Source: a virus | Taxonomy: Duplodnaviria; Heunggongvirae; Uroviricota; Caudoviricetes | Reading direction: 5' to 3' (one strand) | Length of the DNA: 34,304 nucleotides | Virus record (IMG/VR): IMGVR_UViG_2703718827_000010 | Coordinates: 1 to 34,304 of that record | Shown: one piece after another, positions 7,802 through 11,673 of the stretch | How the letters are laid out: each line of letters opens with the position of its first letter | How positions within the stretch are numbered: position 1 is the stretch's first letter | Translations under genes and position numbers: made by a program | The notes under the pieces: model-generated | Seen by the model: the letters and a program-made list of their open reading frames with translations, nothing else | Told to the model about the DNA's origin: nothing | The model's database searches: none

Positions 7802-8461
7802 TTAGATGTTCTGCGTTATCTGAACTACTTTGCCTACAATGCGGCAATTTCCATCAATTGGGATCGGCTTAAAGGCGGGATTAAGCGGCATTAAATATGA
7901 GTAAGGGCTATCCCAAACAAGTTTCTTCACAGTCGCTTCTGCTGAACCATCGAGTATTGCTACGACAATTTTCCCATACAGGTCATCAAGTTGTCCGTAG
8001 TGTGGTTCAACGATAACGATTGACCCCTCCGGAATTGATGGAAGTCCGTGTGGGTTAGTCATTGACTCACCACGAACTACCAAACCGAAAACTTCATCAG
8101 AAACGTTTGCTGTGGTTTGAGTCCATGAAATCACATCAGTAAGCCTTGAGCATGCATAGGTATCAGTCCATACCCCGGCCTGAACAGCAGAGATAATAGG
8201 AACGGCCGTAGGTGGCTTCAGGTATGGGATAACTTTGGTGTCATCTTGAGTCTCATCACCCTTGCCGTAAAGAATCCATTCAGGAGTAGTCTGTAAAGCC
8301 ATCGCTAGTTGGTGAAGGTTTTCTCCGTCAGGCTTAGTTGTACCGTTCTCCCATTTGGTAACGGACACTCTACTCACCCCAAGGCGTTTAGCCAGGGTCT
8401 GCTGAGTTATATCGAGCTGGACTCGCCGGGATCTTATTCGGTCTTTCATCTCTGTTTTCAT
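7802..8461 (-). CDS. cI: CI-like prophage repressor (HTH XRE domain plus S24 LexA-like autopeptidase domain)
   Basis: N-terminal HTH (QQTLAKRLGVSRVSVTKWENG); C-terminal S24 peptidase region (VVRGESM...KIVVAIL); divergent from cro. Confidence 0.85.
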   Translation of the reverse strand: MKTEMKDRIRSRRVQLDITQQTLAKRLGVSRVSVTKWENGTTKPDGENLHQLAMALQTTPEWILYGKGDETQDDTKVIPYLKPPTAVPIISAVQAGVWTDTYACSRLTDVISWTQTTANVSDEVFGLVVRGESMTNPHGLPSIPEGSIVIVEPHYGQLDDLYGKIVVAILDGSAEATVKKLVWDSPYSYLMPLNPAFKPIPIDGNCRIVGKVVQITQNI

Positions 8462-8524
8462 GTAACCAATGTTACATTGATTCCTTGTAACTGTTGTTTG
8501 CTATTTAATGTACCTTTTGTTACC
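8461..8524. promoter_or_regulatory. cI-cro intergenic operator/promoter region: palindrome TGTAACCAATGTTACA (8461-8476) plus 18-nt motif copy AATGTACCTTTTGTTACC (8507-8524)
   Basis: Palindrome abuts the cI start codon; motif shared with the two copies left of cI; half-site resembles TGTAAC/GTTACA. Confidence 0.45.
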
Positions 8525-8553
8525 TTTAAGGCGTGAGTTAACCAGGAGGAACC

Positions 8554-8751
8554 ATGCTTAAAACTGACGTCATAGAACACTTCGGAGGGGTATCAAAAAC
8601 CGCGAGTGTTTTGGGAATTTCTCATCCTGCAGTGTGCCGATGGGGTGATGTGATCCCTCAGAAGCAAGCTTTTGTTATCGAACGTATCACTAAAGGCAAG
8701 CTTAAATACGATGCCAGCCTTTACCAAAAGTCTACAGACACAGCAGCTTAA
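8554..8751 (+). CDS. cro: Cro-like small HTH regulator
   Basis: 65-aa protein divergent from cI, AGGAGG RBS, HTH segment GGVSKTASVLGISHPAVCRW. Confidence 0.7.
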   Translation: MLKTDVIEHFGGVSKTASVLGISHPAVCRWGDVIPQKQAFVIERITKGKLKYDASLYQKSTDTAA

Positions 8752-8776
8752 ACATAACTACCAAAGGAAAAACAAG

Positions 8777-9241
8777 ATGGTAGAGCAGACCCTGAAAGAA
8801 GTAGTGAAAGCGATGTGCAAGGCGTACCCCGGAGGCCGTCAGGCTATGGCTGGCGCGTTAGGCATGTCAGAAACCCAGTTCAACAACAACCTGTACGAGA
8901 AAAACGGATGCCGGTTCTTTGAAGTAACTGAGCTGGAAGCGATGGAAGACATTTCCAATACGTCATTTGTTGCTGACTACTTTGCTAAGCGTCGTGGCGC
9001 ACTGCTGGTGGACGTGCCAAGCCTGGAAGATCTGGACCGTGTTGACTTGTTCAGTCGTGCAATGCGTACAGCAGCTGCAAGGGGGCAGGTTGATCAGATT
9101 ATCCAGAAGGCGCTTGAGGATGGAGTGATTGAAAAGCATGAAGCTGAAGAGATTCAGGAACATCACCGCCGTCATCTGGCAGCGCGTGAAGAAGAAATCC
9201 GCGCGATTGTGGCCTTATTCAGCCGCCGTCAAAAGAAGTGA
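8777..9241 (+). CDS. CII-like early regulatory protein (start at internal ATG 8777)
   Basis: Position directly after cro; 154-aa protein MVEQTLKEVVKAMCKAYPGG...; assignment by position and general resemblance to phage CII/CP76-type regulators, not verified. Confidence 0.5.
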   Translation: MVEQTLKEVVKAMCKAYPGGRQAMAGALGMSETQFNNNLYEKNGCRFFEVTELEAMEDISNTSFVADYFAKRRGALLVDVPSLEDLDRVDLFSRAMRTAAARGQVDQIIQKALEDGVIEKHEAEEIQEHHRRHLAAREEEIRAIVALFSRRQKK

Positions 9242-9302
9242 CGCCAGCGAGTGTGCAGCTCCTGGCGTCGTGGCGTGTCGTATTCAGTGGAGAAACTAAC
9301 GC

Positions 9303-9641
9303 ATGAACAGTGTAACAACACAGTACCGCAGGTCGCAACTTATTGCTCGACCTATGCCGGGTGGAAAAGGTCCGGCGCAGTTCGTGTATGGGGTAATGGT
9401 ATCCGGATGCTTTGAGCCTGTCTGCTACCAGTTTGCCGATTGGGTTGTAGGTGATTTCAACGGCCAGGCGGAGAAGGTCGAATGCGAGCACTCAACAGAC
9501 GGTTTAAAGACAGCTACGGCGTCCCAGTCAGGGTTATCCGGTGGGAACCAGAAACTCAACGGGTTATATACCTGCGCGATGGATACGAGCATGAGTGCTT
9601 CAGTCCTCTCGAACAGTTTCAGCGTAAATTCAGGGAAATAG
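9303..9641 (+). CDS. Hypothetical protein; C-terminal half may be read-through in the wrong frame (see overlapping ORF 9482-9694)
   Basis: GGAGA RBS 9 nt before ATG; ends 10 nt before the O-like start; C-terminal half is low-complexity S/T/G-rich. Confidence 0.35.
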   Translation: MNSVTTQYRRSQLIARPMPGGKGPAQFVYGVMVSGCFEPVCYQFADWVVGDFNGQAEKVECEHSTDGLKTATASQSGLSGGNQKLNGLYTCAMDTSMSASVLSNSFSVNSGK

Positions 9642-9694
9642 AGGATCAGAATGAGCCTGTTAATGACATCACGGCCAATAGTGATAAATCCTGA
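9482..9694 (+). CDS. Hypothetical small protein overlapping both 9303-9641 and the O-like gene start
   Basis: 70-aa ORF with globular-looking composition (RVIRWEPETQRVIYLRDGYEHECFSPLEQF); AAGG RBS; frame closed upstream by TGA at 9452. Confidence 0.4.
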   Translation: MRALNRRFKDSYGVPVRVIRWEPETQRVIYLRDGYEHECFSPLEQFQRKFREIEDQNEPVNDITANSDKS

Positions 9695-10559
9695 CCTTGC
9701 ATACAGCATTGGCCTGAATGAGGCGATTGCATTGCAGCAGATTAATTACTGGCTGCAAGAAACTAAGTCAGGCATGGAGCGTGACGGTGTTCGCTGGATT
9801 TACAACACGACAGAACAGTGGCTGGAGCAGTTCCCGTTCTGGTCTGAGTCGACCCTGAAGCGTACCTTCACCCGCCTGAAGACACTCGGCGTGCTCAAAA
9901 TTGAGCAGTTGAACAAGTCTCAACGCGACATGACCAACTTCTACACGATCAACTATGAAAGCGAGCTTTTAGATGAAGTCAAAGTGACCGAATCGAAGAG
10001 GTCAAAATGCGCTGTTCCATCAGGTCAAAATGACACGATGGAAGAGGCCAAAGTGACACACTCCATCAGGTCAAAACGAACCGCTGTCATCAGGTCAAAA
10101 TGCACTGATGATCCTACAGAGAATACAACAGAGAGTACTACAGAGATTACAGGTAAAGACTCTTGTCCGGTTGCAGGGCAACCAGACCCTGAAGTTGTGA
10201 TTACTGATCAGGCGATTTTGGTGTTGTCCCATTTGAACCAAATCAGCGGATCCCGGTATCAGAAGTCAAAAACATCCCTGGAGAACATCCGTGCCCGACT
10301 GCGTGATGGTTACAGCGTTGCTGACCTGCAACTTGTTATCGACCTCAAACATGAGCATTGGCACGAGAACGACGAGCAGTACCAGTACATGCGACCTGAA
10401 ACGCTGTTCGGACCGAGGAAATTTGAGAGCTATCTGCAAAGCGCCACCCGCTGGAACCAGAAGGGACGACCCAAGCGTGCTGACTGGGGCGCTAAAAGGC
10501 GCGATGTGATGGATTTTGGTCCTGTTGATACAACGATTCCTGCGGGCTTCAGGGGGTAA
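9651..10559 (+). CDS. Replication initiation protein (lambda O-like replisome organiser) with in-gene origin iterons
   Basis: Position after cII; AGAGGA RBS; central repetitive RSK-rich linker encoded by direct DNA repeats; conserved-looking C-terminal domain. Confidence 0.65.
   Translation: MSLLMTSRPIVINPDLAYSIGLNEAIALQQINYWLQETKSGMERDGVRWIYNTTEQWLEQFPFWSESTLKRTFTRLKTLGVLKIEQLNKSQRDMTNFYTINYESELLDEVKVTESKRSKCAVPSGQNDTMEEAKVTHSIRSKRTAVIRSKCTDDPTENTTESTTEITGKDSCPVAGQPDPEVVITDQAILVLSHLNQISGSRYQKSKTSLENIRARLRDGYSVADLQLVIDLKHEHWHENDEQYQYMRPETLFGPRKFESYLQSATRWNQKGRPKRADWGAKRRDVMDFGPVDTTIPAGFRG
9975..10102. repeat. Iteron array (candidate ori) inside the O-like gene
   Basis: CATCAGGTCAAAA(T/C)G at 10018-10032, 10064-10078, 10088-10102; partial AGGTCAAAATG at 9999-10009; CAAAGTGAC variants nearby; A-rich stretch downstream. 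Confidence 0.6.
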
Positions 10560-10561
10560 CG

Positions 10562-11005
10562 ATGAGCTTACTGAAAACTATCCAGATGTTTGTAGCTCAG
10601 AACCCTGGGCTAACCAACAAGCAGATAGCTGCAGCACTGACAGAATACGATATTCAGTCGGTTCAGCGTGCCGTATGCCGACTAGTTGATACAAAGCGTG
10701 CAACACGTAAACACGCGGGAAAGTGTTATCGCTATTACGCAGAACCGCCAGCAGATTGCCACTTCGAGGTTTTTGAACCAACCCCTGAAGTCAGCGCACT
10801 GATGGAGACGGCGAAATGTCTGGAGTCGAAAGGCCTCTTTCACCGTGCCGCGACGATATACATGCAAGCGTTCAGCGTGTCAGCCATTGAATCAGAGCGA
10901 GCAGCAATTCTGGCAGAACGTCAGCGCTGTCTTGGCCTGGCTAAGCCAGCAGTTATTACCGAAGACGGATGCTATCTGTCTGGTCGATTTTCGGGAGGCC
11001 GTTAA
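10562..11005 (+). CDS. Hypothetical protein, possible winged-helix regulator (PerC-like assignment uncertain)
   Basis: 147-aa ORF immediately after O-like gene; N-terminal HTH-like segment LTNKQIAAALTEYDIQSVQRAVCRLV. Confidence 0.45.
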   Translation: MSLLKTIQMFVAQNPGLTNKQIAAALTEYDIQSVQRAVCRLVDTKRATRKHAGKCYRYYAEPPADCHFEVFEPTPEVSALMETAKCLESKGLFHRAATIYMQAFSVSAIESERAAILAERQRCLGLAKPAVITEDGCYLSGRFSGGR

Positions 11006-11673
11006 TGAACTACTCATTGATTTACGCAGATCCGCCGTGGGAATACGGAAACACCATCAGCAATGGTGCAGCGGAAAACCATTACGGCACGATGAAACTC
11101 ATCGACATAAAACGCCTGCCTGTCTGGGAGCTGGCTGCGGAAAATTCCGTTCTGGCCATGTGGTTCACCGGTACACACACCCGCGAAGCTATCGAACTGG
11201 CTGAGGCATGGGGTTTTAAGGTTCGGACCATGAAGGGATTCACCTGGGTGAAGCTTAACTCACTGGCAGAACAGCATATCAATAAAGCGCTTCAGGCTGG
11301 TGGTGTAGAGGACTTTTACGACTTCCTCGACCTGTTGAACGCTCAGACCCGAATGAACGGTGGTAACTATACCCGCGCCAATACCGAGGATCTGTTAATC
11401 GCTACCAGAGGGAAAGGTCTTGAGCGTCAGAATGCGAGCGTAAAACAGGTTATCTACAGCCCACTCAGCGAACACAGCCAGAAGCCAGCAGAAGCGCGTT
11501 ACCGTCTGGAGCAATTATACGGCGATGTATCACGCATTGAGTTGTTCAGCCGCTGTTCGGCTCCCGGCTGGCATCACTGGGGAAATCAGGCAGAAAATCC
11601 TGATGTAATCATGTCACCTGGTTACGTTGGTAAACCTGCTCCGCTGCTGGAGGTGGCTTATGCAGGACGTTGA
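11005..11673 (+). CDS. MT-A70 family DNA N6-adenine methyltransferase (orphan, no cognate nuclease seen)
   Basis: DPPW motif (LIYADPPWEY) near N-terminus; GGAGG RBS before ATG 11005; track ORF starts at 10969. Confidence 0.8.
   Translation: MNYSLIYADPPWEYGNTISNGAAENHYGTMKLIDIKRLPVWELAAENSVLAMWFTGTHTREAIELAEAWGFKVRTMKGFTWVKLNSLAEQHINKALQAGGVEDFYDFLDLLNAQTRMNGGNYTRANTEDLLIATRGKGLERQNASVKQVIYSPLSEHSQKPAEARYRLEQLYGDVSRIELFSRCSAPGWHHWGNQAENPDVIMSPGYVGKPAPLLEVAYAGR

Follow-up and report, generated by a model that had tools for sequence, protein, structure and literature searches.

In plasmids with RepA_N initiators, the iterons occupy the middle portion of the rep gene, and contact with the host primosome is made by a distinct C-terminal domain. 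Among phages, the origins of lambda and of the Stx phages share a plan in which the iterons lie within gene O, with six iterons in the Stx phages (PMC7466680; PMC6022878). In lambda, in-frame deletions of 12 and 15 bp in the High-AT region destroy ori, and O still complements (PMC6022878). Here, we analyzed a lambdoid prophage of 34,304 nucleotides (nt), the whole of the IMG/VR record IMGVR_UViG_2703718827_000010, which is called the window below. The region 9972-10187 of the window, situated inside the gene of a 302-amino-acid (aa) protein, is very probably the vegetative, theta-type origin of the prophage, located in its own initiator gene and built like that of lambda. An intragenic origin of the lambda type is expected in a lambdoid prophage. 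What appears to be new, as judged from sequence comparison, is an initiator outside the lambda O family, the lack of a loader gene, and a precise 12-mer array replacing the AT-rich run.

The initial annotation of this DNA had proposed an iteron-type origin embedded in the gene, and the comparative evidence presented here supports such an element. Repeat analysis gave six units of 23 bp, starting at 9972, 9995, 10018, 10041, 10064, and 10088 (spacings of 23, 23, 23, 23, and 24 bp), and a run of Tandem Repeats Finder (TRF), the check suggested earlier, returned periods of 23 and 46. The copies of CATCAGGTCAAAA(T/C)G already recorded at 10018, 10064, and 10088 were all present, as were the interleaved variants CAAAGTGAC (at 9980 and 10049) and the RSK-rich linker peptide VKVTESKRSKCAVPSGQNDTMEEAKVTHSIRSKRTAVIRSKCTDD. 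A partial copy placed at 9999 was also found, with its core at 10000. However, the repeat number had been underestimated, since there are six units and the origin extends to about 10187. Every unit has a core with at most 2 mismatches from GGTCAAAATG (at 9977, 10000, 10023, 10046, 10069, and 10093), for which the consensus is (A/G)G(T/C)CAAA(A/G)(T/C)G, and shows a hyphenated dyad symmetry, GTCA-AAA-TGAC, about the A-tract, with 5 to 8 of 11 pairs being symmetric. Six core matches were found within 140 nt, compared to a maximum of 1 to 3 in 200 first-order Markov simulations of the window. Over the whole window, the core 10-mer was not enriched (37 matches versus 38 expected); therefore, the signal is the cluster. 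Iteron origins are generally recognized by at least three direct repeats of about 17 to 23 bp, with a spacing roughly in helical phase and beyond chance, and the array displays all of these features. The cores fall in codon phases 2, 1, 0, 2, 1, and 1 and are translated into EVKVT, KRSKCA, PSGQND, EEAKVT, IRSKRT, and IRSKCT. As the unit length of 23 bp is not divisible by three, the copies occupy every reading frame and specify different peptides; the repeat therefore belongs to the DNA and not to the peptide.

The iterons are followed by three tandem 12-mers (ACAGAGAATACA, ACAGAGAGTACT, and ACAGAGATTACA), which encode the peptide TENTTESTTEIT. An A-rich stretch had been noted at this place; it does exist, but it is a conserved three-copy array (10116-10151) and not merely a run rich in A. 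The gene reaches its lowest GC content (0.35), with a strong purine skew, at 10120-10159, over the 12-mers. By analogy with the position of the lambda High-AT region, we propose that the 12-mer array may serve as a DNA-unwinding or loading element. The palindrome that comes next was analyzed for covariation in a set of 40 distinct sequences chosen by the outer GTC...GAC alone. As this selection imposed the outer three pairs, the inner seven pairs alone count as evidence. Paired cells amounted to 88%, versus 82% in shuffles, and there were 18 compensatory cells, versus 4.4 in shuffles (0/500). Pair 9-15 was GC in 29 sequences, CG in 8, and UA in 3 and was never unpaired, and the loop was free. 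Examples of compensatory changes in the arms of relatives are GGTTTC/GAAACC, GGTTCC/GGAACC, and GGCTCA/TGAGCC. These data point to selection on the palindrome at the DNA level.

Conservation was then examined in relatives. Of the 592 related loci that were confirmed in IMG/VR by a peptide-based scan, 80 were kept at more than 91% identity in the N-domain, giving 75 distinct arrays. All 75 could be aligned without any indel; the entropy was near zero at the TCAAA positions, and the spacers varied. The entropy at the three codon positions was 0.08, 0.04, and 0.67 in the N-terminal domain; 0.23, 0.21, and 0.28 in the iteron array, where TCAAA was invariant; and 0.13, 0.45, and 0.17 in the 12-mers, where a second codon position was free and the synonymous sites did not change. 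Therefore, conservation in the array tracks the place within the 23-mer and the variation at third codon positions is gone, which argues for selection at the DNA level. A blastn search identified relatives in phages of Klebsiella, Escherichia, Pantoea, Providencia, Erwinia, Hafnia, and Pseudomonas. All named relatives had a 23-bp array at the equivalent place, followed by these 12-mers, and their cores were different (GGTCAAAATGACC, GGGCAAATTGCCC, and GGACAAATTGTCC). The presence of the repeats in related phages, on which the earlier proposal depended, was thus observed, with cores that differ.

The repeats also varied together with the protein. The putative recognition helix in the N-terminal domain is FPFWSESTLKR, and over all loci with this N-type, comprising 18 helix variants, the residue that precedes the conserved Thr in FPFWS-xx-T-x-K-R covaried with the iteron half-site. 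Helices of the form xS/T/K-T were paired with GGTCA (rarely GGACA), and those of the form xD-T were paired with GGGCA (xxGCA) in 7 variants from 18 loci, with no exception; IP-T and VI-T were paired with GATCA and TATCA. Such a covariation is what would be expected if the N-domain reads the repeats. The repeats and the N-terminal domain were inherited together through mosaic exchanges, and the repeats thus appear to be specific for the initiator encoded in cis.

In the AlphaFold2 (AF2) model, aa 14-112 form a folded winged helix, aa 109-177 have a predicted local distance difference test score (pLDDT) of about 30, and aa 178-282 are helical. The origin DNA, 9972-10187, corresponds to the codons for aa 108-179, and the low-pLDDT linker (aa 109-177) corresponds to nt 9975-10181. 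The iterons, the 12-mers, and the palindrome together thus encode the predicted disordered linker between two folded domains. The N-domain, the iterons, and the 12-mers behave as one module, with 77-89% DNA identity to Klebsiella and mEp460-type phages. The C-terminal half is common to Salmonella phage 118970_sal3, whose N-terminus is unrelated and whose iterons are different. At least four C-terminal types are joined to the N-terminal type of the window. One of them (in mEp460_4F5, HannyBb, and PhiR42_1) is homologous to the C terminus of lambda O (E 5e-27), and in the alignment, TENTTEITTE stands opposite the lambda peptide DTKDTITKEKRKD, which is encoded by the AT-rich tract. At one locus (L106), the 12-mers are directly followed by a lambda-like palindrome. 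According to these alignments, the 12-mer array is the positional counterpart of the lambda unwinding region, with the mosaic joint at this place, and C-terminal domains have evidently been exchanged at the 12-mer/palindrome junction.

Table. Features of the origin, the initiator gene, and their surroundings (positions in the window)
Feature	Position	Strand	Basis or remark
Iteron array, six 23-bp units	9972..10110	+	Repeat analysis, TRF, conservation in relatives
Three tandem 12-mers ACAGAGAnTACn	10116-10151	+	Repeat finding, GC, conservation
Palindrome GTCCGGTTGC-AGG-GCAACCAGAC	10165..10187	+	10-bp arms, one mismatch, 3-nt loop
Initiator gene, 302 aa	9651..10559	+	List of open reading frames (ORFs)
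N-terminal winged-helix DNA-binding domain (predicted), aa 14-112	9690..9986	+	AF2
C-terminal helical domain (Phg_2220_C), aa 178-282	10182..10496	+	
C-terminal tail DVMDFGPVDTTIPAGFRG, aa 285-302	10503..10556	+	Motif D...P.GF(R)
Integrase gene	1-1170		
Early-left genes	Between integrase and cI-like gene		
ParB-like gene (HTH_ParB; PHROG 1033)	4916-5746	minus	Early-left operon
cI-like repressor gene	7802-8461	minus	
cro-like gene	8554-8751		
CII-like gene	8777-9241		
Two small ORFs	Between CII-like gene and ORF 9651-10559		
DUF4222 ORF, 70 aa	9482-9694		Overlaps initiator start (9651) by 44 nt
Small winged helix-turn-helix (wHTH) + PerC-like gene	10562..11005	+	Starts 2 nt past initiator stop
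MT-A70 methylase ORF	10969-11673		As listed, overlaps PerC-like gene by 37 nt
LexA-DNA-binding-domain protein, RusA, antirepressor, DUF968, Q-like antiterminator	Further right		

The only Pfam family matched by the 302-aa protein was Phg_2220_C (PF09524; aa 191-263, E 2.4e-23), with 82.4 bits, above the cutoff of 27 for this family model; the score for NCBIfam TIGR02220 was 65.2, slightly below the cutoff of 66.65. The whole protein matched PHROG 428, annotated as "replication initiation protein" (E 7.6e-72), and PHROG 6493, annotated as "DnaD-like helicase loader," matched aa 2-165. An identical protein is recorded from E. coli, and near-identical ones are recorded from Salmonella and Citrobacter. 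The gene had been called O-like by the initial annotation, which is correct for the architecture but not for the sequence family. Phage_rep_O (PF04492) gave no Pfam match at E 0.01 (lambda O itself, 5.7e-36), and BLASTP against lambda O revealed no similarity (E 0.33). By sequence, the protein is therefore not a member of the lambda O family. A search of the PDB by sequence returned no match. The best matches of the N-domain in the PDB by Foldseek were the N-domains of RepA_N plasmid initiators (4pql, 5kbj, and 4pt7), which were weak (E 0.02-0.1; probability, 0.94-1.0; template modeling score, 0.47-0.49 on the target); one of these structures is a complex with iteron DNA. The next matches were generic wHTH proteins.

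The C-terminal domain is presumed to contact the host replication machinery. A search of the literature found no functional paper on Phg_2220_C. In the tail, the columns D293, P297, G299, and F300 were invariant in 29 homologues, and the neighboring residues varied. The ending (I/V)PxGFRG was also found on relatives with a C-domain of the lambda O type. The tail is a candidate site for the docking of a replication protein of the host. It loosely resembles the acidic IPF tail of the single-stranded DNA-binding protein, SSB.

Could the protein be a regulator? The repeats would then be operators for a transcription factor, with the protein acting as an autoregulator or an early-gene regulator of the early-right operon. 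Its winged-helix N-fold resembles those of many repressors, "transcriptional regulator" is among its database names, and the next gene encodes a PerC-like activator. We nevertheless consider such a role improbable. The sites are in the middle of a coding sequence with no promoter-like site nearby, as a scan of 8400-11200 found no sigma-70-like site. The succession of iterons, low-GC repeat, and palindrome matches the origins of lambda and P22, the same N terminus and repeats are fused to a lambda O C-domain in relatives, and the PHROGs matched are families of replication initiators. Moreover, the prophage would otherwise be without any initiator, since the window yielded no further replication gene. 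An Rfam scan of 9500-10700 gave one chance match to a small nucleolar RNA and no known RNA element.

Downstream of the initiator gene, no P- or DnaC-like gene had been apparent initially, and this was confirmed: the PerC-like and MT-A70 genes follow, and family searches of the early region found no loader. Families of helicases, loaders, and primases had no match in the sizeable ORFs from the integrase gene to the Q-like gene, and none was found in the annotated E. coli prophage or among the neighbors of the gene in six named phages. The PerC-like protein had no helicase-loader match in the libraries searched. The absence of loader, helicase, and primase genes would fit an origin remnant, or a helper-dependent origin, whose loader or helicase partner has been lost; so would the pseudogenes (MT-A70 with an internal stop and a partial portal) found nearby in an E. 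coli prophage that is 97.6% identical. Such a loss seems hardly likely, however. The same loader-less arrangement is common to phages that were isolated as plaque-forming or induced (ST147-VIM1phi7.2, mEp460 derivatives, HannyBb, PhiR42_1, AH07, and yong2), and strong purifying selection acts on both the protein domains and the DNA elements over at least 75 variants. Erwinia phage PEp14 and Pseudomonas phage USP_18 have the same N-type and 12-mers with other C termini. In these two phages, the initiator gene is followed by that of a conserved protein of about 265 aa (L007 3342-4157; L009 3483-4271) that belongs to PHROG 6028 and has no Pfam match. This protein is a candidate partner or loader for the C-types of PEp14 and USP_18.

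It is most improbable that the array arose by neutral tandem duplication, or reflects a basic peptide that is repeated within a disordered linker, and has no function as DNA. The region does encode a low-confidence, low-complexity linker, and the 46-bp higher-order period suggests a past duplication. However, codon phase and covariation already contradict this idea, as the copies lie in three frames and covary with the DNA-binding helix; in addition, 75 variants have no indels, invariant cores, and variable spacers, and unrelated lineages whose cores differ have retained the 23-bp period. Equally remote is a centromere-like, partition, or packaging site for another protein, such as the ParB-like one (4916-5746), suggested by the presence of that gene in the window and by the fact that centromeres are likewise arrays of phased repeats, because the repeats track the helix of the very protein that contains them and travel with its N-domain, also in relatives without a nearby ParB gene.

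If 9972-10187 is the origin, initiation may proceed as follows. Dimers of the N-terminal winged-helix domain would bind the six dyad-symmetric iterons in an O-some-like complex. This nucleoprotein complex would stress the adjacent low-GC, purine-skewed 12-mers, the tract would open, and the palindrome would bound the opened region. The Phg_2220_C domain and/or the invariant tail, D..IPxGFRG, could then recruit the host DnaB-DnaC, or another primosome route, directly. Direct recruitment of the host helicase is proposed because the phage encodes no loader. Alternatively, the host helicase could be brought in via a hairpin formed by the palindrome.

Several points weigh against an origin at this locus. 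No convincing structural relative was found for the C-terminal domain, and its fold shows no clear tie to helicase-loading proteins. In RefSeq and GenBank, the protein is called "transcriptional regulator" or "conserved phage C-terminal domain-containing protein" or is unnamed. DnaA boxes (TTATNCACA, at most 1 mismatch) were not enriched, and none was found within 500 bp of the array. The 12-mer tract is just 65% AT, versus a far richer tract in lambda; since the 12-mers are only moderately AT-rich, the term "unwinding element" is assigned by position. Finally, the prophage could be defective. Two further candidate elements were discarded. Opening assisted by DnaA boxes is unsupported, as there are no such boxes near the array. 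The GATC at 10110-10113, located between the array and the 12-mers, might have been a Dam/SeqA control site; however, it varies (A/T) in about half of the close relatives.

The 12-mer was searched for in IMG/VR and in contigs of bacterial genomes with the pattern ACAGAGANTACNACAGAGANTAC, which has 20 specified bases. At least 119 IMG/VR contigs and at least 120 bacterial genome contigs matched, i.e., at least 239 in total (L093-L211, viral; L212-L331, genomes). All counts in this paragraph are among the matches listed. The 12-mer array was almost always just 3' of dyad repeats of 22-23 bp in initiator-like ORFs. The viral matches represented 107 distinct loci; in 104 of them, the motif was in frame in an ORF that was long or cut by the contig end, and the best upstream autocorrelation period was 23 bp in 83 of the 107. 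The N termini of the viral loci formed at least 39 clusters at 70% identity and were joined to many C-terminal types. The genome matches came from Gamma-, Beta-, Alpha-, and Deltaproteobacteria, Firmicutes, Cyanobacteria, and Chloroflexi and, further, from Gracilibacteria, Bacteroidota, Fibrobacteres, and Nitrospirae, with a locus GC content of 0.22-0.63. A long ORF, or one cut by the contig end, contained 105 of the 120 genome matches, and the upstream period was 22-23 bp in 93 of 116.

Synonymous sites were tested with the 12-mer copies not forced by the search pattern. In these copies, the Thr codon ended in A in 102 of 108, and the Glu codon ended in G in 97 and in the synonymous A in 1. 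The first, nonsynonymous position departed in 23. The synonymous sites being fixed, the 12-mer is constrained at the DNA level. Two genuine initiator ORFs read the 12-mer in another frame, one from Halomonas (L240), giving FLQRLLQRVP, and one from a Lachnospiraceae genome (L248), giving TENNYRDYHRDYP. About 12 loci had the 12-mer and iteron-like repeats without a long ORF. Five matches (L111, L225, L238, L277, and L285) were set aside as unrelated repeat proteins rich in Tyr/Asp/Arg or Thr. In the library searched, no paper on the 12-mer in this context was found, and three 11-mers taken from it gave only unrelated primer matches.

We therefore raise, tentatively, the possibility that the ACAGAGAnTACn array is an undescribed, sequence-specific origin element that is kept across phyla with a broad class of wHTH initiators of phages and prophages. 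As part of this tentative reading, the 12-mer would be kept whatever the iteron sequence, N-type, C-domain, and GC content of the host. Its retention across phyla would follow if a universal component of the host replisome reads it, for instance, as the place where a helicase or primase enters the opened strand. If true, this would explain how loader-less initiators start replication in very different hosts. The 12-mer is a rare case of a short DNA motif kept across phyla within coding sequence, the cross-phylum conservation being the unexpected part. The High-AT deletions of lambda offer a precedent in which the DNA of a linker has a role apart from its peptide, and the same separation is predicted for the 12-mers.

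The initiator gene occupies the position of O, after cI (on the minus strand), cro, and the CII-like gene. An E. coli chromosome contains a stretch 97.6% identical to the window, where the ORF is named "conserved phage C-terminal domain-containing protein." The overlap between the DUF4222 ORF and the initiator gene is annotated likewise in Klebsiella phage ST147-VIM1phi7.2 and in the E. coli prophage. The PerC-like protein matched Pfam PerC (E 1.2e-4) and PHROG 1324, "transcriptional activator" (E 2.5e-53). In Salmonella phage 118970_sal3, the initiator and the PerC-like protein are fused in one ORF of 437 aa (GFRG-MSLLAK...; locus L010 1983-3296), and the PerC-like gene is also located 3' of the initiator gene in Pantoea phage AH07, mEp460_4F5, and Hafnia phage yong2. 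This suggests a functional link between the initiator and the PerC-like gene. The true start of the MT-A70 gene is likely the ATG at about 11005 (MNYSLIYADPPW), overlapping the upstream stop; in the E. coli prophage with 97.6% identity, an internal stop makes this gene a pseudogene. The ParB-like protein is encoded in a prophage that otherwise looks integrative. Beyond the Q-like gene, there are ORFs whose size and position would suit terminase and portal genes, and a perfect hexamer repeat, CAGAGC x 6.2 (TRF score, 74), is found in the late region at 25319-25355.

Enterobacterial prophages carry this gene by the thousands under uninformative names; 3038 homologues were counted at E<=1e-5, and IMG/VR contains at least 592 of the loci. 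The assignment of an initiator with a delimited origin would be useful for prophage annotation, for the construction of mini-replicons, and for studies on incompatibility and exclusion. The family may represent a natural form of lambda-type initiation without a phage-encoded loader, with the tail as a handle on the host partner. The covariation between iterons and helix may amount to a small recognition code for origin specificity and for compatibility between prophages.

Among the known systems, Lactococcus phage TP901-1 is similar in that ORF13 is a single replication protein, annotated as "experimental," with origin repeats in its own gene and no adjacent loader; its origin has been located experimentally within the ORF13 gene. 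The protein is of another type, and the rep gene of TP901-1 lacks the ACAGAGAnTACn array; therefore, the motif is not universal to intragenic phage origins. The RepA_N initiators of Firmicutes plasmids (pSK41/pTZ2162 RepA) provide the best, albeit weak, structural matches to the N-domain. Unlike these, the window protein has no Pfam RepA_N match and belongs to a phage, RepA_N being a plasmid family, and we know of no 12-mer array in RepA_N plasmids. DnaD-like replisome organizers (SPP1 G38P and DnaD/DnaB_2 proteins) are likewise two-domain, origin-binding organizers, and some relatives bearing the 12-mer have a Pfam DnaB_2 C terminus (locus L141). In Salmonella phage P22, the annotated origin lies inside gene 18, where three or four iterons specific to the phage precede a conserved, repeated A-rich element, ACAAAAGACAATAT x2. 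However, gp18 is in the N-terminal family of lambda O, and gene 12, which comes after it, encodes a DnaB-type helicase of the phage; neither applies to the window. Lambda and P22 share a different conserved element of a similar flavor, ACAAAAGACA(A/C)TAT. In contrast to lambda, the N-domain in the window is not Phage_rep_O, the C-domain is Phg_2220_C and not a P-binding one, there is no P gene, and a precise 12-mer repeat (65% AT) takes the place of the 39-bp High-AT run. The lambda-like arrangement proposed initially agrees with the order of the elements. In both lambda and the window, the origin occupies the central part of the initiator gene, where a flexible linker is encoded, and the gene comes after cro and cII in the pR operon. 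Both have 4-6 dyad-symmetric iterons with an A-tract core (cccTCAAAACGAggg in lambda and ggTCAAAATGAcc in the window) spaced by about 20-24 bp; lambda has four annotated iterons with spacings of 20, 24, and 23 bp and the core TCAAAACGA. In both, the iterons lead into a purine-skewed tract of low GC content, beyond which stands a GTC...GAC palindrome whose loop is 3 nt long; in lambda, this palindrome is GTCAGAGAATTC-TGG-CGAATCCTCTGAC, to the right of the AT-rich tract, the counterpart of the palindrome in the window.

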